Origin: Candidatus Hadarchaeota archaeon
Lineage (GTDB): Archaea > Hadarchaeota > Hadarchaeia > Hadarchaeales > JAWBSP01
Direction: 5' to 3'
Length of the DNA: 64,000 bases
Assembly (NCBI GenBank): GCA_964632175.1
Contig: CAZWBJ010000002.1
Span: forward strand, 13,878 to 77,877
Under the pieces are notes generated by a model. The model saw only the letters and a program-made list of their open reading frames with translations, was not told the origin of the DNA and ran no database searches. Shown in pieces: positions 1,889 through 24,346 of the stretch. The translations under genes were made by a program, and so were the position numbers. How positions within the stretch are numbered: position 1 is the stretch's first letter; every line of letters begins with the position of its first letter.

Positions 1889-2809
1889 ATGAGAGGAGCA
1901 CCCGAGGCGGAGGAGGCACAGTGCCCCAAGTGCGGGGGAAGGAAATTGATTAGAGATTACGAGCATGCCGAGGTGGTATGCGGGGACTGCGGGTACGTCA
2001 TTACGGACAGGCTACTCGACGCGGGCCCGGACTGGAGGATGATGGGAAGGGACAAGACCAAGGGGAGGACGGGGGCACCCATGACGTTGAGTATTCACGA
2101 CAAGGGCTTGTCTACCATGATAGACTGGAGGGACAAGGACAGCTACGGGAAGGAGCTCACGGCCGGGCGCAGGGCCCAGATCTACAGGCTGAGGAAGTGG
2201 CAGCGCAGGATAAGGATAGGGGACGCGGTTGACCGGAACCTAACCTTCGCCCTCGGGGAAATAGAGCGGATGACGGCCCACCTCGGCCTGCCAAACGATG
2301 TGAAGGAGGCGGCGTGCCACATCTACAGGAAGGCGGTGGAGGAGAGGCTCATAAGGGGAAGGTCCATCGAGGGGGTTGCCGCTGCCGCCCTGTACGCCGC
2401 CTGCAGGCAGTGGCGCATCCCAAGAACCCTGGACGAGATCGCGGAGGTCTCGAGGGTGAGCAAGAAGGAGATAGGAAGGAGCTACAGGTTCATCATCCGA
2501 CAGCTCATGAAGACCCCCTCCAGCTCCCCGGTGGACTACATCCCCAGATTCGCCAGCGAGCTCGGCCTTTCCGGAGAGGTGGAGGCCAAGGCCATCGAGA
2601 TCCTGAAGAAGTCTGCCCCCTACGGCCTCACCTCCGGAAGGGGGCCCACGGGTGTCGCTGCCGCCGCCCTGTATATAGCAACGGTCCTCTGCAACGAGAG
2701 GAGAACCCAGAGGGAGATCGCCAACGTGGCCAGGGTCACAGAGGTCACGGTCAGGAACCGGTACAAGGAGATCGCGGAGAAGCTGGGGCTGGACGTAGAG
2801 CTGGACTGA
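1889..2809 (+). CDS. tfb: Transcription initiation factor IIB (TFB)
   Basis: N-terminal Zn ribbon CPKCGG...CGDCGY followed by two cyclin-fold repeats. Typical TFB length of 306 aa. Confidence 0.95.
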
Positions 2810-2839
2810 TCGGATTTTCCTCCCTAAAGACAGTCTCGG

Positions 2840-3262
2840 ATGGGGGGAGTATACGTTCTCTTCCTGCACGTCCCCTTCTCCATGCCCGCAGTCATCGGCG
2901 GGCTGGGCAGGCTCGAGTTCAGGGGAGGATACTATGCCTACGTCGGGTCTGCCATGGGAGGTCTTGAGCAGAGGATTGGCAGGCATCTACAGCGGGAGAA
3001 AGCCCTCCACTGGCATATAGATTACCTCCTGCTCCGGGCCCTTCCCTACGACGTGGTGGTGGCAGAAACCGGGGAGAGGAAGGAATGCGAGCTGGCGGCC
3101 AAGCTGATGGAGAGGTTTCCCTGCATGGAAGGATTCGGGTCGAGCGACTGCAAGTGCAGGAGCCACCTCTTCTACTCCGCCGAGCCCGCCCCCCTTCTGG
3201 AGGCGGTGCTGAAGGCCATGAAGGAGCTCGGACTCACCCCGCGGAGGCAGAAGATTGTATAG
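2840..3262 (+). CDS. DUF123 family protein (GIY-YIG-like nuclease superfamily)
   Basis: GVYVLFL ... GYYAYVGSA ... RIGRH ... HWHIDYL motifs characteristic of DUF123/GIY-YIG. Length 140 aa. Confidence 0.8.
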   Translation: MGGVYVLFLHVPFSMPAVIGGLGRLEFRGGYYAYVGSAMGGLEQRIGRHLQREKALHWHIDYLLLRALPYDVVVAETGERKECELAAKLMERFPCMEGFGSSDCKCRSHLFYSAEPAPLLEAVLKAMKELGLTPRRQKIV

Positions 3263-3845
3263 GGAAAGGGATGCCTACCGCAGGCTGGCCAGGGAGCGCG
3301 GGTACCGGAGCAGGGCGGCCTTCAAACTCCTCCAGCTGGACAGGAGGTACCACCTCTTTAAACGGGGGGATGTGGTGGTCGATCTCGGGGCGGCACCGGG
3401 TGGGTGGCTGCAGGTGGCGAGGCAGAAGGTTGGGGAGGAGGGATTTGTTCTGGGCGTTGACCTTCTGCCCATTAGGGAGCTACCGCACGGGAACGTTGCC
3501 ACCCTCGTAGCCGACATCACCGAACCGCAGACCGCCTCCCTCATCCTCCAGCTCCTGCCGAGAAAGGCAGATGTGGTGCTTTCGGATGCCTCCCCCCAGA
3601 TTTCCGGCGTTTGGAGTGTGGACCATCTCCGCTCCGTGGAGCTCTGCCGCTCCGCCCTGCAAATCTGCGAAAAAGTACTGAGGAGCGGGGGGAACGCCTT
3701 GATAAAGATCTTCCAAGGGGAGGAGTTCGAATCCTTTTTCTCAGAATTTAAGAGAAGGTTCCAGTTTTCTAAAATACACAAACCCGGAGCCTCAAGAAGG
3801 GGGAGCGCAGAGATATACCTGGTGGGAAAGAACCTTCTAGGATAG
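3255..3845 (+). CDS. rlmE: 23S rRNA (uridine-2'-O)-methyltransferase RlmE/FtsJ
   Basis: YRSRAAFKL...DLGAAPGGW...DVVLSDASP motifs of the FtsJ/RrmJ family. Confidence 0.9.
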   Translation: MYRERDAYRRLARERGYRSRAAFKLLQLDRRYHLFKRGDVVVDLGAAPGGWLQVARQKVGEEGFVLGVDLLPIRELPHGNVATLVADITEPQTASLILQLLPRKADVVLSDASPQISGVWSVDHLRSVELCRSALQICEKVLRSGGNALIKIFQGEEFESFFSEFKRRFQFSKIHKPGASRRGSAEIYLVGKNLLG

Positions 3846-3849
3846 TTGA

Positions 3850-5001
3850 TCACCTCAACTGTTGCTCCAGCGCCTCGAGCGGTGCGTCCGTTCTTATGCC
3901 GTCTGGGGAAAAATGGGTCCTGGTGGCCTGGAAGCCCATCCCTTGCAGCTTCTCAATTATCCTATCTAGTTTGGGTGGGGAAATCCTCATCCGCTCGCAA
4001 AGCTTGTGTATGCTGTAAAAAGTCGGGGGTCCCTCTGCCTCCAACAGGAGGAGCTGCAGGAGCCTCCTCTCCTCCGTGGCCCTCTTGAAGGATCTCCGCT
4101 CCAGCTCCCGGGACATTTCATGGAGGAAATCCCGCTTTCCCAGCTCGCCCAGCCACATCGGGCCCGCGTGCCGCAGGCGGTTGCCACAGGCGCAAACTTC
4201 CTCCACGTTTAAACCCCAGCCCTCATAAACCTTCCTCCGCCCGCATGCGAAGCAGTGGGAAATCATCCCCTGTCGCTTGAGCAACGTATCGGCCAGACTG
4301 CGGCTCCTCCTGGCCAGAAAGCCCACCCTGAAGTAGTGCCTAGTAGCGTGTGAGAAAACGGGTTCGAGCGAGATCCCGAACTTGGCCGCCGTCCTCTGAG
4401 CGGATCCTATCAAAATCCTGAGCCCAATCTCCCTGCAGTATTCCGTTCGCAGGGGCTTGGCAGAGTACTTCCGGAGACATGCCCTCTCCCCCCTGCCGCA
4501 GAGGGGGGCGGTGTCGGTCGCCGTCACTAGGAGGAGGGCCCGGGGTTTCAGGCCCCTGCAGGCCGAATCCAAGAAGGTTGAAGGAGAGCCGAAGGGATCC
4601 AAGTCCACCAAGTCGAACCTGTTGGAGTTCAGCAGAACGTTGGCATCCTCTTTCATGATCTTGACGTTTTCGAGCTTGTTGAGCTCCACGTTCCTCCTCA
4701 GCAACTCTTGGGCGAGCGGCGAGCGGTCGTTGAGCACGGCGGAGGAGACCCCCTCCACCTCCTTGGCGTACCTGAGCCCCCTGACCCCCACGCCCGCCAT
4801 GGGGTCGCAGACCTCGATACTGCATCCCCTCGAAAAGACCGCGCAGGCCAGAACCGAGAGATCCCGACTCAGCTCCATATGAGGATTGTAGAAAACGGGT
4901 GCAAGTGAGGGGACGTAATCCCCGCTGGGTGCTCTATACGAGCTGAGTTCGGGGACCTCAAGCTCCACCAGTCCTTCCCTCACCAGCTGGGTTTTGATCA
5001 T
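3850..5001 (-). CDS. trm1: tRNA (guanine26-N2)-dimethyltransferase Trm1
   Basis: DPFGSP motif, a C-terminal Cys cluster, and Trm1-typical length of 383 aa. Confidence 0.9.
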   Translation of the reverse strand: MIKTQLVREGLVELEVPELSSYRAPSGDYVPSLAPVFYNPHMELSRDLSVLACAVFSRGCSIEVCDPMAGVGVRGLRYAKEVEGVSSAVLNDRSPLAQELLRRNVELNKLENVKIMKEDANVLLNSNRFDLVDLDPFGSPSTFLDSACRGLKPRALLLVTATDTAPLCGRGERACLRKYSAKPLRTEYCREIGLRILIGSAQRTAAKFGISLEPVFSHATRHYFRVGFLARRSRSLADTLLKRQGMISHCFACGRRKVYEGWGLNVEEVCACGNRLRHAGPMWLGELGKRDFLHEMSRELERRSFKRATEERRLLQLLLLEAEGPPTFYSIHKLCERMRISPPKLDRIIEKLQGMGFQATRTHFSPDGIRTDAPLEALEQQLR

Positions 5002-5287
5002 CAGTTTCTTGCCAGGGGTCGAAAACTGTTTTTCGGGTTTGGCAAGTGAGTTCTCGTTTCAACAAGACCTCAGGATAGAATTCGGGGCTCAGTTGCGAAA
5101 AGCAGGAGTTACCGATTGATAAAACCCTGCAGCAGATCCCCGGGACGGAATTTCTCCCCACATTCCGAAAACGGTCGGCTGAATGTCGACCAGTTTTCTG
5201 ATTTTTCCATTGCCCTTTCGTCAAGGATTTAGTATAAACTTCAGTGTCCTTTTAGCGAGGAAAGAAGACTGTGTGTTTTTAAACATA

Positions 5288-6532
5288 ATGCACAAAATAA
5301 TAATGCACAAAATCATAAAGCGTCCAACGGATGTGGACGCCTTCAACAAATTGGGTCCTTGGGTGCTGATTTGCGGTAGGAGGAAAACGGGGAAGACTTT
5401 CTTCGTTCGGGAGTTCCTTGACTGGGACGAATACTTCTTCGTGAAGAGAGGAGGGCGATCGCTGCTTGACGGGGAGGGGAGGGAGCTGAGCTACCCGACC
5501 TTTCTGGAGGTCTTCAGGAGGGATTTTCCAGAAAAGTGCTTCGCCATCGACGAATTCCAGAGACTTCCCGACGATTTCTCCGACCTCCTCCATTCCATGG
5601 GAATGAGGGGGAGGTTGATTGCGGTGACCTCAGCCCTCTCTTTCTCCAAGAAGATGCTGGAAGGCTCTTCTCCCCTTCTTGGGCTTTTCTCCGTTCTCAA
5701 ACTTGGGCTGGTGGACGAAAGGGACATCCTGCTGGGGCTTTCGAGGGAGCTGAAAGGAAGGGAGCTCATCGAGGCATCGGTCTACCTTAGGGAGCCATGG
5801 CTCGTCCCGAGGTTTCGGGGAAGGATGAAGGAGTTCCTCCCATCCTTTCTCTACGAGCAGAGGGGAGCAATCAAGGCGCTGCTCGGCGAGATCTTCACGG
5901 AGGAGGAAAGGGAACTCTCTCTCGTCTACCAGGGAATTCTTGAGGCTGTCGCCATGGGGAAACGGGTAAGCACGGAGATATCCAGCCATCTCTACTCCCT
6001 GGGACTCCTTCCAAAGGACAATCCCGGCGCTATCCAGAGATACCTGGAGGTCCTGGTCGAGACCAATCTCCTCGAGAAGACACCGGTTTACGGATCGAAG
6101 AAGTTCAGATACCGACATGCCTCCCCCCTCCTTGATCTTCACTTCTATCTGGAGGGAAAGTACTCATACACCGAAACGGAAATCCCCGAGCAATTCATCG
6201 GGGAGGTCGTTCAACAGAAGCTACCCGTCCACGTGGAGGAATTCTTCTCCTCCCTTCTCTCCAAACTCCTCGGCCTGAGAAGGGTGGCGGTTGAGGAGCC
6301 ACCCTTAGACATCGCCCTTTTCGAGTTCAAGCGGTTGAAGGTGGTCGGGGAGGTGAAGTGGGGGAAGGTGGAAAAGGAAGAGCTCCAAAGGATAGGAGAG
6401 CGACTGAGAAAATTCGACGCCGAACGGTATCTCATAGTTCCAGAGGATGGGATAGAGCTGGAGGGCGTAAAGGTTCTTGATGTTCCGGCAATCCTAGAAA
6501 TCCTGAAGTCGGGATATCCAAAGGAAGTCTAA
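5288..6532 (+). CDS. Archaeal ATPase family protein (AAA+ P-loop) with a DUF234 C-terminal domain
   Basis: Walker A GRRKTGKT and Walker B FAIDEFQ. The start is probably ATG 5288 or 5303, within a 15-bp tandem duplication that encodes MHKII-MHKII. The six-frame ORF extends back to 5183. Confidence 0.75.
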   Translation: MHKIIMHKIIKRPTDVDAFNKLGPWVLICGRRKTGKTFFVREFLDWDEYFFVKRGGRSLLDGEGRELSYPTFLEVFRRDFPEKCFAIDEFQRLPDDFSDLLHSMGMRGRLIAVTSALSFSKKMLEGSSPLLGLFSVLKLGLVDERDILLGLSRELKGRELIEASVYLREPWLVPRFRGRMKEFLPSFLYEQRGAIKALLGEIFTEEERELSLVYQGILEAVAMGKRVSTEISSHLYSLGLLPKDNPGAIQRYLEVLVETNLLEKTPVYGSKKFRYRHASPLLDLHFYLEGKYSYTETEIPEQFIGEVVQQKLPVHVEEFFSSLLSKLLGLRRVAVEEPPLDIALFEFKRLKVVGEVKWGKVEKEELQRIGERLRKFDAERYLIVPEDGIELEGVKVLDVPAILEILKSGYPKEV

Positions 6533-21100: not shown

Positions 21101-22099
21101 CTAGATATTTTGGGAAACTTCCACCAGGTCCGAGAGCAACGCGCTCGAGGTCTCTCTCGGCCCAGCCCCAAAACCGGTGATGGTGACTTCCCTGCCGTAC
21201 TCCAGCTCGAAGCACACGGCGTTGAGGGTTCCACTTACAGCCAAGGGATGATCGAGGGGTACGAGAGAGGGACGCACGCTCAGCCCCTTGGAATCGGCAC
21301 TCCCAACCAGCTTTATGGTGTATCCTGCCTCCTTCGCCAGCTTCAGGGCCTCTGGGGTTATCCTGGAGATTCCCAGCACGCGGACATCTTGGAGGGTGGC
21401 ATCCAACCCGAGCGTTGCATTGGCCAAAATCACAAGCTTGCAGGCCGTATCAACCCCCTCGAGATCGAGCGTTGGATCCTTCTCCGCTATCCCCAGTTCC
21501 TGGGCTTCCCTGAGCACGATGTCCTGGGGGAGCCCCTCCCTCTCCATCCTCGTCAGGATGTAGTTGGTGGTTCCGTTCAGCACCCCCCTGATGGCGAGGA
21601 TTCGGTCGCCCAAGGAAAGCCTCTTCGCCAGCGTCAGCACGGGGATGGCCCCGCCCACCGTTGCCGAGTACCGGAACTGAACCCCCTGCCTGCGAGCAAG
21701 CTCCGAGAGCTCCCTAAAGGCCACCACCAACGGACCCTTATTTGAGGTCACCACATGCCTCTTGAGCTTCATCGCCTCCCTGATATGGGTGAGTCCAGGT
21801 TCCCCGGTTCGTATGTTCGTGGGGGTGAGTTCAAGAACCACCTCTGCCTCCGTTTCCCTTATGACCTCTACAGCCGAAAGCCCGGGCCGGCCGAGCGATG
21901 CGACGGTGCCCTCTCTCTCGGCAGTCTCCAGCACCTTCCCCAGCTCCAGCCCCTTCTCATCCACTACCCCTCCCCTATCATCCGCGACCGCCACCACTTT
22001 CACCTCGGTCCCCTGTCTTTGGAGCGGGTTATTGGGCTGGAGAAGTGCCCTAGCTAGGCCCCTCCCCAAGTTCCCGAAACCGACGAAAATCACCCTCAT
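21101..22099 (-). CDS. hom: Homoserine dehydrogenase
   Basis: MRVIFVGFGNLG Rossmann start and the Hom catalytic domain. The six-frame ORF has a spurious 85-aa N-terminal extension. The Met at 22099 overlaps the stop of the upstream ACT gene. Confidence 0.85.
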   Translation of the reverse strand: MRVIFVGFGNLGRGLARALLQPNNPLQRQGTEVKVVAVADDRGGVVDEKGLELGKVLETAEREGTVASLGRPGLSAVEVIRETEAEVVLELTPTNIRTGEPGLTHIREAMKLKRHVVTSNKGPLVVAFRELSELARRQGVQFRYSATVGGAIPVLTLAKRLSLGDRILAIRGVLNGTTNYILTRMEREGLPQDIVLREAQELGIAEKDPTLDLEGVDTACKLVILANATLGLDATLQDVRVLGISRITPEALKLAKEAGYTIKLVGSADSKGLSVRPSLVPLDHPLAVSGTLNAVCFELEYGREVTITGFGAGPRETSSALLSDLVEVSQNI

Positions 22100-22602
22100 T
22101 GACCCACGACCCTGACGGACAGTAACTCCATTTTCGAGGCCATCTCCTCCACGAGGGATAGGGCCTGGGAGAGGCGCTCGGAGCTCTCGGCCACCAAGCT
22201 CATCCTCGCGGCGGACTCCATCCCCGGGCCCCTCATAGCCAGACTCAGATCCGAGACCCTCACACCGCCCATCGTGTTTAGGGCGTCTATGAGCTTCTGC
22301 AGGTCGGAGTGGACAACGTGGCCTAGGAGGAGGATGGTAGTCTTGGCGGTCCACTCCCTCTCCCCCACCTGCGTGATTCTTATTCCCATACCCCTGAAGG
22401 TTTCGAGGAGCCTCTCGAGTTTCTCCCTGTCCGGAATCTCAAAGACTACGGTGACGGGCAGCCTCCCCAACGGTGTCTTTTTCTCCCGCAGGTGGACCAC
22501 GCTCTGGATGTTGCCCCCGAACCTAGCGACGGGCTCTAGAACCCTCACGAGCTGCCCCGGTTTGTCCTCTAACTCCATCTCTACCCTCACCAGCATCCCC
22601 AC
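22096..22602 (-). CDS. Protein with two ACT domains (amino-acid-binding regulatory protein), co-transcribed with hom
   Basis: Two ACT-like beta-alpha-beta-beta-alpha-beta units; 168 aa. Confidence 0.65.
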   Translation of the reverse strand: MGMLVRVEMELEDKPGQLVRVLEPVARFGGNIQSVVHLREKKTPLGRLPVTVVFEIPDREKLERLLETFRGMGIRITQVGEREWTAKTTILLLGHVVHSDLQKLIDALNTMGGVRVSDLSLAMRGPGMESAARMSLVAESSERLSQALSLVEEMASKMELLSVRVVGQ

Positions 22603-22635
22603 CTCGGGCTGGGAGGTTTTATCCGAGTCAGTCAG

Positions 22636-23226
22636 CTACCCCAGGAGCTCCTCCTCTTCCTCCGAGTAGAGGCAACCCTCTCTGGAGTAGTAGGGACACT
22701 CCGGGCAGCAATCGTTCTTTTCCTCACATTCGTAGTAATATGGGCAGTGGTGGCAGCACGGCATTTTAGGGTTTTCAGATGGTATATTTAAATCTTCGCA
22801 AGCTCCAGTCGGCGGTTTCTCTCTCATCCTTTGCCAAGCTTCGTTAGAGCACTCGGCAGCTCTCTTGCAAGTTCGGCCCCATGCTTCCATGTCGCTAGGA
22901 GGGTCGGCAGGGTCTCGTATATCTGCACCCCCTTTTGATTCCGGGTGTCCTACGATCCTGCCGTTGGTCGACTCCACCCGGATTCCGTCACAAAGGTGAA
23001 CCAGTGGGTACCCTCTCCGGTTTTTTTCGGCGAACTTCCGCGCCACCGCTCCCCCGCGTCTCTTCGTCGTCCTGAGCAACTTGCGCTCCGCGGAGAAGGC
23101 TCCTTCCCCGAGGGTCTTTTTAAGCGCCAGCCTGCGCCTCAGCTTCCGCTTTATCTCGAGATCGGTTTCTCGCGCGCCAGCCTCTCGATCTCCTCCCTCG
23201 GGCAGTTCTCCTCCCAGATTCCACAC
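22636..23226 (-). CDS. Hypothetical protein with a basic N-terminal region and a Cys-rich acidic C-terminus. It may actually be only a 42-aa Cys-rich micro-protein (22636-22764).
   Basis: Long ORF with a GTG start. The C-terminus is MPCCHHCPYYYECEEKNDCCPECPYYSREGCLYSEEEEELLG, with an internal CCxxCPYY repeat. A canonical TATA box (ATTTAAATATA, plus coordinates 22783-22793) lies 19-28 nt upstream of the internal ATG at 22764. Confidence 0.25.
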   Translation of the reverse strand: MWNLGGELPEGGDREAGARETDLEIKRKLRRRLALKKTLGEGAFSAERKLLRTTKRRGGAVARKFAEKNRRGYPLVHLCDGIRVESTNGRIVGHPESKGGADIRDPADPPSDMEAWGRTCKRAAECSNEAWQRMREKPPTGACEDLNIPSENPKMPCCHHCPYYYECEEKNDCCPECPYYSREGCLYSEEEEELLG

Positions 23227-23440
23227 CGCTGGCAGATCATTTCACGATGATGGTACGCTCTCTCTTGCCTAGGTACTCCTTGGGGCAGTCGACCTTGGTC
23301 TGTTTCCGAAGGGCGTGACAGTTCTCTCCAGAAATCCCAGAATCTGGTCTTCCAACGTGAGTCTCTCCCCGTTCAGGACGATTTTTCCTCATGGGGGTAA
23401 ATCGTATATCCTAGCTTAATACATACTCGCCAAGAGATAG

Positions 23441-24346
23441 ATGCCGACGATATTGGTTTCCGACCATCTGCATCCGGACGGCGTGGAGGAGCTTAAGAAG
23501 CTGGGGGAGGTGAGGGTGAAAACGGGTCTTCCCCCGGCAGAACTCCTGAAAGAGGTCGCGGATGTGGAGGTTCTGGTGGTCAGAAGCGCCACCAAGGTGA
23601 CCAGGGAGGTGATAGAAGCGGGAAGGAGGCTCAAGATTGTGGCGCGGGCTGGGGTGGGCTTGGACAACATCGATCAAGAAGCGGCCAAGGAAAGGGGAAT
23701 AAAGGTGCTTAACGCCCCCGAGTCGGTCAGTGTGGCGGTGGCGGAGTTAACCCTAGGGTTGATGCTCAGCTGGTGCAGAAAAATCCCAGCGGCGGACATG
23801 AGCATGAGAGAGGGGAAGTGGGAAAAGTCCAAGTTCATGGGGTCTGAAATGCGTGGGAAAACGCTGGGAATCGTGGGCACCGGCCGAGTAGGCTTGGAAG
23901 TGGCCAAGAGAGCCCAAGCCTTTGGCATGCGGCTACTGGGGTATGATATCGTTCAAAACAGGGAGTTCTTGGCTCTGGGGGGGAAATACGTGGACTTGGA
24001 GACCCTGCTGAGAAATTCCGACTTCGTTTCCCTGCACGTCCCACTCACGGACCAAACCAAAAACCTGATCGGAGAAAGGGAGCTGAGGATGATGAAACCG
24101 ACAGCCGTGCTGGTGAACACCTCGAGGGGTGCGGTTGTGGACGAGGGGGCTCTCGTGAGGGCGCTTCAAGAGGGTTGGATCGCTGGGGCCTGCCTAGACG
24201 TTTACTGGAAGGAACCCCTAGGGGAGCACCCGCTGTGTAAACTGCCCAACGTGATCCTCACCCCCCACCTCGGTGCCTCCACAGAGGAGTCACAGAGGGA
24301 GGCTGCCCTGCTGATCGCAGAAAAAATAAAACGAGAGCTCGAGTAG
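23441..24346 (+). CDS. serA: D-3-phosphoglycerate dehydrogenase-like 2-hydroxyacid dehydrogenase (short form, no ACT domain)
   Basis: GTGRVG NAD-binding motif and the D-isomer-specific 2-hydroxyacid dehydrogenase catalytic region; 301 aa. Confidence 0.8.
   Translation: MPTILVSDHLHPDGVEELKKLGEVRVKTGLPPAELLKEVADVEVLVVRSATKVTREVIEAGRRLKIVARAGVGLDNIDQEAAKERGIKVLNAPESVSVAVAELTLGLMLSWCRKIPAADMSMREGKWEKSKFMGSEMRGKTLGIVGTGRVGLEVAKRAQAFGMRLLGYDIVQNREFLALGGKYVDLETLLRNSDFVSLHVPLTDQTKNLIGERELRMMKPTAVLVNTSRGAVVDEGALVRALQEGWIAGACLDVYWKEPLGEHPLCKLPNVILTPHLGASTEESQREAALLIAEKIKRELE

Follow-up and report, generated by a model that had tools for sequence, protein, structure and literature searches.

The question raised by this locus is whether a short cysteine-rich peptide encoded on the minus strand of a Hadarchaeota contig is the end of a longer protein or the product of a gene of its own and, in the latter case, what such a product could do. 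The locus lies in a stretch of 64,000 nucleotides (hereafter the 64-kb window, or the window) from contig CAZWBJ010000002.1 of the Candidatus Hadarchaeota archaeon assembly GCA_964632175.1. A 196-aa open reading frame (ORF) with a GTG start exists there as a mechanical ORF (22636-23226, minus strand), and its last 42 codons begin with an ATG. The initial annotation had considered both possibilities for these 42 codons. We conclude that the segment 22636-22764 on the minus strand is almost certainly a real, independent gene, and that its 42-aa product is a cytoplasmic micro-protein. Taken as a whole, the reading that we favour, with a probability of roughly 0.6, is that of an abundant cytoplasmic micro-protein with a metal-thiolate fold, expressed from its own promoter and acting as a small binding or redox module.

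Read on the minus strand, the gene runs from an ATG at 22764-22762 to a TAG stop codon at 22638-22636, and its translation is MPCCHHCPYYYECEEKNDCCPECPYYSREGCLYSEEEEELLG (42 aa). The eight cysteines, the internal CCxxCPYY repeat and the acidic tail described by the initial annotation are borne out. The cysteines stand at residues 3, 4, 7, 13, 19, 20, 23 and 31 (19% of the peptide), the C-terminal tail is acidic, and the repeat is also visible in the DNA as two direct 25-nt copies (22686-22710 and 22734-22758, spacing 48 nt) sharing 72% identity. The peptide contains six aromatic residues, has a pI of about 4.1 and carries no signal peptide. The codon score of the gene is 0.41 bits/codon (range 0.4-0.5 inside the 42 codons), to be compared with 0.46-0.58 for the genes of the window. 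At least seven cysteines within 42 aa were found in only three of the 872 six-frame ORFs of at least 40 aa in the window; the two others were dismissed as antisense or low-complexity frames.

Conservation of the peptide in relatives, which the initial annotation had proposed to look for, was indeed found. Stand-alone orthologues are present in Hadarchaeales relatives, at the loci designated here L003, L004, L008, L011-L013 and L019-L025, and their stop-to-stop frames span 50-61 codons only. In L003 (Hadarchaeales JZ-1 bin), about 200 bp lie between the divergent serA-like gene and the ACT-domain gene, and this interval holds the stand-alone ORF MPEMPCCHQCPYYYDCEEKNDCCPECPYYSTEGCLYSEEEEELLG. 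The protein annotated there (P0001, 45 aa, MPEM...; L003 5834-5842) begins at an ATG located just 9 nt past the TATA box, with the conserved start MPCC... three codons downstream; its annotated start is probably three codons too long. The L004 orthologue reads MPRCCPRCYAYYECDHQNGCCRECEYYAGDECLLSEEYPELEEKF, and those of L011, L012 and L013, obtained from a metagenome scan, lie in stop-to-stop frames of 50-59 codons.

A profile search of 1.84 billion representatives returned 8 clusters at E <1e-3, all of 42-56-aa proteins aligned end to end, and a word-indexed search with a 12-sequence profile returned 34 clusters at 90% identity (8 representatives at 50%). Members of 39-59 aa were kept for the alignment and the 89-aa P0030, whose N-terminus looks over-called, was excluded. 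Across the 32 aligned sequences, some with as little as 31% identity, no column is invariant apart from the eight cysteines, whose spacing is fixed as CC-x2-C-x5-C-x5-CC-x2-C-x7-C (one member has x9 in place of x7). P2 is nearly invariant, and there is a strong preference for N17, for two aromatics following the second knuckle and for a tail rich in Glu. Every member has exactly 8 Cys (17-19% of its residues), 3-9 aromatic residues and a pI of 4.05-4.7, and the eight-Cys motif was never seen within a larger protein among family members. Large proteins listed in the peptide clusters were dismissed as clustering noise: P0036 and P0066 were judged so, and the unrelated entries in the 90% clusters of P0023 and P0019 are a 445-aa cytochrome P450 and a 629-aa SerB/SerA-like protein. 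The 9-mer DCCPECPYY, followed by two more Cys, also occurs in five Cas6-like proteins from metagenomes of hot springs (about 310 aa each; L014-L018, ~4500-5480); they were not retained as relatives, the similarity being limited to this short knuckle, which is probably an analogous zinc knuckle.

The organism names in the source records of the family are all Hadarchaeales, Hadarchaeum, Hadarchaeaceae or Hadesarchaea, one record being labelled just "subsurface metagenome", and the family is confined to Hadarchaeales as far as labelled records show. The closest genome relatives of the neighbouring ACT protein are metagenome-assembled genomes of Candidatus Hadarchaeales / Hadesarchaea (74% and 56% identity). 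The substitution pattern indicates that the micro-protein is under strong purifying selection: between the window and L011, its gene differs by 21 synonymous changes and a single non-synonymous one. Across six gene pairs, the proportion of synonymous differences (pS) is 0.57-0.97, near saturation, that of non-synonymous differences (pN) is 0.00-0.05, and the ratio of the two substitution rates (dN/dS) is 0.00-0.06. Between genomes the peptide is 93-98% identical (98% to L011/L012), with flanking genes that are about 72-75% identical in DNA.

The initial annotation was essentially right in placing a TATA box 19-28 nt upstream of the ATG. No second copy of the box exists in the window: counting both strands of the 64 kb, TTTAAATA has a single occurrence for 0.26 expected. 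ATTTAAATATA spans 22793-22783, or -29 to -19 relative to the first letter of the ATG. Upstream of it lies a purine-rich stretch, GCGAAGA (22793-22799), resembling a B recognition element (BRE). The window forms a lineage A with L003, L011, L012, L013 and L019. The box TTTAAATATA is identical in L003, L011, L012 and L013 at 18-19 nt from the ATG, a near-identical CTTAAATATC occupies the same place in L019, and in this lineage the box is preceded by a purine-rich stretch. In box type, purine-rich BRE and conserved position, the element has the appearance of an archaeal BRE/TATA promoter. In a lineage B (L004, L008, L020, L021 and L022), the TATA box is located 42-45 nt upstream and a GGAGG/GGTGG Shine-Dalgarno element precedes the ATG. 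A TATA box at a workable distance was found at every locus examined, and the presence of a promoter throughout, in two architectures, supports independent transcription.

The usual archaeal spacing is about 26 nt from TATA centre to start. Because the spacing between TATA box and ATG is 18-19 nt, the lineage A mRNA is probably leaderless or nearly leaderless; this spacing is 1-2 nt short of the textbook value. The other lineages would use a Shine-Dalgarno leader. In L003, L011, L012 and L013, the same TATA box lies 16 nt from the divergent serA-like start codon and probably serves both genes. The proposal of an independently transcribed metal-binding micro-protein thus stands in its first half, with a separate gene, a conserved TATA box and a dN/dS of 0.00-0.06; its second half, metal binding, is plausible and is something that we infer.

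The eight cysteines form two half-sites in the first 31 residues, CC-x2-C-x5-C and CC-x2-C-x7-C, and this segment is too short and has too few aliphatics for folding alone. A metal-dependent fold of the peptide is likely in our view. A metal-thiolate fold is favoured because these 31 residues contain eight invariant Cys and almost no aliphatic core, in a protein devoid of signal peptide and residing in an anaerobic cytoplasm. Zn(Cys)4 and Fe(Cys)4 sites are classically made up of such ligands, two CxxC knuckles each with following aromatics. The metal, Zn(II) or Fe, would be held either in two tetrathiolate sites or in a single small cluster bridged by thiolates, around which the peptide would fold. 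The first site would be most simply built from the CxxC knuckles C4/C7 and C20/C23, and the second from the symmetric set C3/C13/C19/C31, which could otherwise bridge a cluster. The acidic C-terminal tail, predicted to be helical, would be the obvious surface for contact with a partner. Such a micro-protein, small and abundant, would serve as a binding or redox module that depends on metal; a role as enzyme, secreted peptide or leader peptide is not what we propose. Synteny suggests two candidates for its partner, an Hsp20-like chaperone and the ACT/homoserine-dehydrogenase/threonine-synthase cluster. What is said here on metal binding, on the topology of the sites, on the level of expression and on partners is what we infer.

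In keeping with a fold that needs metal, the AlphaFold2 (AF2) model lacks a core and shows nothing but a helix at the C-terminus and a short hairpin; its confidence is low (predicted local distance difference test score, pLDDT, 67). Other observations limit this interpretation. No profile, PDB-sequence or solved-fold match was obtained for the peptide or for the predicted model: the peptide hit no family in Pfam, NCBIfam, PHROGs or PADLOC, the best score being that of zf-UDP (E 0.33), and a PDB profile search with E up to 10 gave no match. In addition, several Haloferax proteins in which Cys zinc-finger motifs are predicted are reported to bind no zinc (PMC11241148). We consider unlikely a more specific variant in which the eight Cys in 29 residues make a minimal fold of a new type around two metal sites, a small Fe-S cluster or a binuclear thiolate cluster. 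The protein would then be a redox or metal-sensing subunit specific to Hadarchaeales, by which the synthesis of Asp-family amino acids (ACT/Hom/ThrC) or the Hsp20/thermosome stress system is coupled to the thiol or metal state of the cell.

Among the closest counterparts are the archaeal C(P)XCG zinc-finger micro-proteins (Haloferax volcanii HVO_2753, HVO_0758 and further ones; PMC11241148, PMC10716476, PMC6562870), which are also stand-alone, shorter than 70 aa and built on paired CxxC knuckles. They are encoded by their own genes and are usually regulatory or binding proteins rather than catalytic ones. The peptide falls within their limit of at most 70 aa (42 aa; family 39-59 aa) but departs from their motif, since its knuckles read CC-H-H-C-P and CC-P-E-C-P, those of relatives CxxC[YPDE] (CCxxC[DE] in other lineages), and no knuckle is followed by Gly. 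It also shares no sequence similarity with them, has eight Cys with two CC doublets instead of four Cys, and occurs in Hadarchaeales only. The Fe(Cys)4 proteins rubredoxin and desulforedoxin are likewise small and acidic, with a single metal bound by two Cys knuckles followed by aromatics, and in desulforedoxin a pair of adjacent Cys takes part. The two CxxC knuckles of the peptide are not diagnostic by themselves, however: the peptide matches no profile of these proteins, 12 residues separate its knuckles, its Cys are twice as many and its model matches no solved fold.

The fungal Gal4-type Zn2Cys6 domain follows the pattern C-x2-C-x6-C-x5-12-C-x2-C-x6-8-C. By analogy, its duplicated CxxC...C half-site, which makes a two-metal cluster in about 30 residues, could be compared with C-x2-C-x5-C-x6-C-x2-C-x7-C here. 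In contrast to Gal4, the first half of the peptide has x5 and not x6, two extra Cys are invariant, the protein is acidic instead of basic and DNA-binding, PF00172 is unmatched and the domain of life is another one. The CxxCxxCxxxCP motif of 2x[4Fe-4S] clostridial ferredoxins is absent from the family alignment, and no Fer4 match was found among the 32 members. The family is annotated merely as "hypothetical protein", is without a Pfam or NCBIfam model and has a new Cys signature, and no description of it was found in the literature searched. It is one of a known kind, that of small Cys-rich, presumably metal-binding archaeal micro-proteins, with a new signature and in one order only.

The initial annotation had suggested that the peptide could be metallothionein-like. 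A metallothionein-type buffer would be a highly expressed thiolate sponge without a dedicated partner, taking up Zn, Cu or Cd where geothermal fluids are rich in metals, and would account for the 17-19% Cys, the CC and CxxC motifs and the very small size that the family shares with metallothioneins; the TATA box, which is the strongest consensus one of the window, suggests abundance. Yet many aromatics are atypical of metallothioneins, which are poorly conserved outside their Cys. The family has 3-9 aromatic residues per protein (six in our peptide), a fixed Cys spacing and strongly conserved non-Cys positions (98% identity against about 72-75% for the DNA of the neighbours). Moreover, none of its 32 members matched a Pfam metallothionein family at E up to 10. 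The label is unsupported, and we regard such a buffer as improbable.

A disulfide-stabilised mini-protein with four intramolecular S-S bonds and no metal would agree with the even number of invariant Cys, and thermophilic archaea can keep cytoplasmic disulfides. The peptide, however, has no signal peptide, and paired CxxC knuckles followed by aromatics are typical of metal sites. The lineage is anaerobic (PMC10811742). A disulfide mini-protein is possible and less likely than a metal fold in an anaerobe; we give it a low probability.

The features of the locus and the gene orders of the relatives are collected in Table 1. The ACT and homoserine dehydrogenase (hom) genes lie on the same strand as the micro-protein gene within 0-3.7 kb in 11 of the 12 distinct loci, and 7 of the 12 have an Hsp20-like gene beside the micro-protein gene or close to it.

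Table 1. Features of the micro-protein locus in the window and gene orders around its orthologues
Feature	Position	Strand	Evidence or remark
TATA box TTTAAATATA	22783..22792	minus	-28 to -19; 18 nt between box and ATG
Micro-protein gene, 42 codons + TAG	22636..22764	minus	orthologues, dN/dS, codon score
Internal tandem duplication, two CCxxCPYY half-sites 16 codons apart	22686..22758	minus	DNA direct repeat and alignment
PCCHHCPYYYECEEK			peptide type expected from the micro-protein
A/T box GATAAAAC	22616..22623	minus	19 nt upstream of the ACT ATG (22596)
ACT-domain protein gene	22096..22596	minus	Pfam ACT; 39 nt downstream of the micro-protein stop
Homoserine dehydrogenase gene, 332 aa	21101..22099	minus	called gene; overlaps the ACT stop by 4 nt
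serA-like D-2-hydroxyacid dehydrogenase gene	23441..24346	plus	divergent; shares its TATA box with the micro-protein gene in relatives
Lineage-specific insert, ~620 bp	22801..23425	minus	between the serA-like start and the micro-protein promoter
Degraded DUF2080 (PF09853) gene	23237..23392	minus	ATG 23392; first gene of the insert
29-codon ORF MICQRCGIWEENCPREEIERLAREKPISR	23151..23240	minus	ATG overlaps the DUF2080 stop (ATGA, 23237-23240)
Gene order in the window, L003, L011-L013, L019, L022			micro-protein, 22-57 nt gap, ACT, hom; in L022 then thrC-type PALP, SHMT
Gene order in L004, L008/L009, L021, L024			micro-protein, 200-212-aa gene, (ApgM-like in L024), ACT, hom
Gene order in L020, L025			micro-protein, convergent gene, 185-189-aa homologue of the 200-212-aa gene, ApgM-like, (methyltransferase), ACT
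Gene order in L023 (P0009, most divergent member)			Hsp20, thermosome, micro-protein; no hom nearby
Hsp20-like neighbours	L004 1666-2304; L008 6210-6818; L021 4223-4825; L024 4215-4823; L020 4878-5435; L025 4936-5505		
Hsp20 and thermosome genes before the micro-protein gene	L023 1717-3921		

The mechanical 417-aa GTG ORF corresponding to homoserine dehydrogenase (21101-22354, minus strand) over-extends into the ACT gene. In five lineage A loci (the window, L003, L011, L012 and L019), the motif [GA]ATAAAA[CTG] stands 17-19 nt before the ACT ATG, accompanied by a Shine-Dalgarno-like element. The window has no T-run between the micro-protein and ACT genes, and an oligo-T run follows the peptide gene in L021. 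From these motifs, the ACT and hom genes may have their own promoter besides read-through from the micro-protein promoter. The serA-like side of the window also contains the genes for L15e, proteasome alpha and exosome subunits. In L019, a TnpB/Cas12f-like gene (201-1634; MJ0013 and Cas12f1-like_TNB domains) stands between the L15e and RNA_binding-domain genes, which are adjacent in the window.

The 185-212-aa neighbour proteins align over their full length with the Hsp20 of L023 (PF00011), and one of them gives a weak NCBIfam Hsp20 match. A stress or chaperone link through these Hsp20-like neighbours is possible. The cysteine-rich domain of DnaJ has eight Cys holding two Zn, and the peptide resembles DnaJ-like zinc-finger co-chaperones in its eight Cys and in having an Hsp20-like neighbour in lineage B, and Hsp20 with the thermosome in L023. 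Unlike DnaJ, it has no CxxCxGxG repeats and no sequence match, and the chaperone link is one of neighbourhood only, absent from the window: neither an Hsp20-like nor a radical-SAM homologue was found in the 64 kb. A functional link of the micro-protein to either set of neighbours is put forward only tentatively.

The other gene found near the peptide in some lineages is that of a radical-SAM enzyme, located divergently upstream in L004, L008, L009, L022 and L024 and near the peptide gene in L025. The initial annotation had suggested a modified-peptide precursor, and such a ribosomally synthesised and post-translationally modified peptide (RiPP), of the ranthipeptide/SCIFF-like type, would be matured by this divergent enzyme. 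With about 45 aa and many Cys, the peptide recalls the SCIFF/ranthipeptide precursors (TIGR03973), which have the same size and composition, as does the radical-SAM neighbour of some lineages. Nevertheless, the enzyme is of the PA0069/SPL-like type, falls below family cut-offs and has no SPASM-type maturase match, and no radical-SAM homologue lies beside any lineage A gene. The Cys begin at residue 3, hence the peptide has no leader, and neither SCIFF (TIGR03973) nor any other NCBIfam model was matched at E up to 10. It is not accompanied by a conserved gene for a protease or a transporter. Finally, typical RiPP cores are less conserved than this family, whose conservation is extreme along the whole length. 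The precursor label finds no support, nothing of the kind being present in the window, and we hold a RiPP to be very unlikely.

A regulatory upstream ORF or leader peptide, whose Cys-tRNA-sensitive translation would tune the downstream ACT-hom-thrC genes, can be proposed because the gene precedes ACT by 22-39 nt, in the same orientation, in the window, L003, L019 and L022, and because the window gap is free of oligo-T. The synthesis of Cys on tRNA starts with SepRS, an enzyme reported to be common in Hadesarchaea/MSBL1 (PMC5424206), which would fit such a role. But the invariant Cys spacing and the conserved non-Cys residues indicate a folded product. What stands between the peptide and ACT in lineage B is an Hsp20-like gene, a run of oligo-T (L021) or a gene in convergent orientation (L020, L025), and the surroundings of the L023 gene contain no hom. 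The ACT gene has its own conserved A/T box, there are no runs of Thr, Met or Ile codons and no conserved alternative hairpins, and an Rfam search of 22000-24000 gave a chance lncRNA match only. We hold a leader peptide, too, to be very unlikely.

The last alternative, that the peptide is the C-terminus of the 196-aa GTG-initiated protein, is refuted almost beyond doubt: the frame is open and the gene caller annotated a 196-aa gene (the identical frame recurs on four contigs), but its 154 N-terminal codons are absent from L003, L011, L012 and L013, its coding signal fades out some 220 nt ahead of the ATG, and the conserved TATA box would fall inside the ORF. These codons are supplied by the lineage-specific insert. 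BLASTN homology to the same four loci ends at 23436-23454, at the serA start, and resumes at 22796-22801, just before the TATA box; the unaligned gap is 7-24 bp in the relatives and about 620-650 bp in the window, and in the relatives the frame closes 8-17 codons upstream of the ATG. The codon score of the 196-aa frame is -0.25 to -0.35 bits/codon over the last ~220 nt (~22960 to 22780), and the frame-0 coding score is positive from 23229 to ~23000. As the initial annotation had noted, the N-terminal part has no recognisable family, and no homologue of it or of the whole ORF was found in a 5.8-billion-protein index, GTDB genomes or viral contigs. From this comparison, the 196-aa ORF is an artefact of an insertion reading through into the micro-protein.

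The insert itself is read as a decayed two-gene cassette. Judged by its reconstruction, its first gene is a degraded member of DUF2080, a domain whose role as antitoxin in type II toxin-antitoxin pairs has been validated (PMC10440598). The middle of the protein is scrambled by two frameshifts that compensate each other, +1 in the A-run 23382-23386 and -1 close to 23300. As encoded, it scores 19.1 bits against a Pfam gathering threshold of 21.5, and with both frameshifts corrected it reaches 44.8 bits (E 1.1e-11). The 29-codon ORF is probably the truncated start of the second cassette gene, which would continue after a frameshift in the 196-aa frame; rebuilt across this frameshift, the gene gave no family match. 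The insert has no second copy in the window and no convincing terminal repeats or target-site duplication. The divergent promoter region seems to be a recurrent landing site for small mobile cassettes, because, besides the insert of the window, L019 (GCA_964474885.1) has a HepT/MNT toxin-antitoxin pair at the same intergenic spot (3172-3793) and L020 an IS66-type transposase upstream of the micro-protein gene (2651-3577). On the serA-like side of the window, an A/T box, CTTAATACATA (23415-23425, plus strand), now stands 15 nt from the serA-like ATG, where relatives use TTTAAATATA at 16 nt.

At this locus, the gene caller joined a real 42-codon gene to 154 junk codons, an example of how small proteins are routinely missed or mis-annotated. 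The locus also indicates that the insertion of a cassette can split a shared bidirectional promoter with neither gene being destroyed. Hadarchaeales had no cultured member until recently. The micro-protein family is among the most strongly constrained sequences of its neighbourhood, yet it occurs in one archaeal order. Its eight-Cys signature, with no solved-fold match, makes it a compact target for structural and metal-binding work, and it could serve as a lineage marker.

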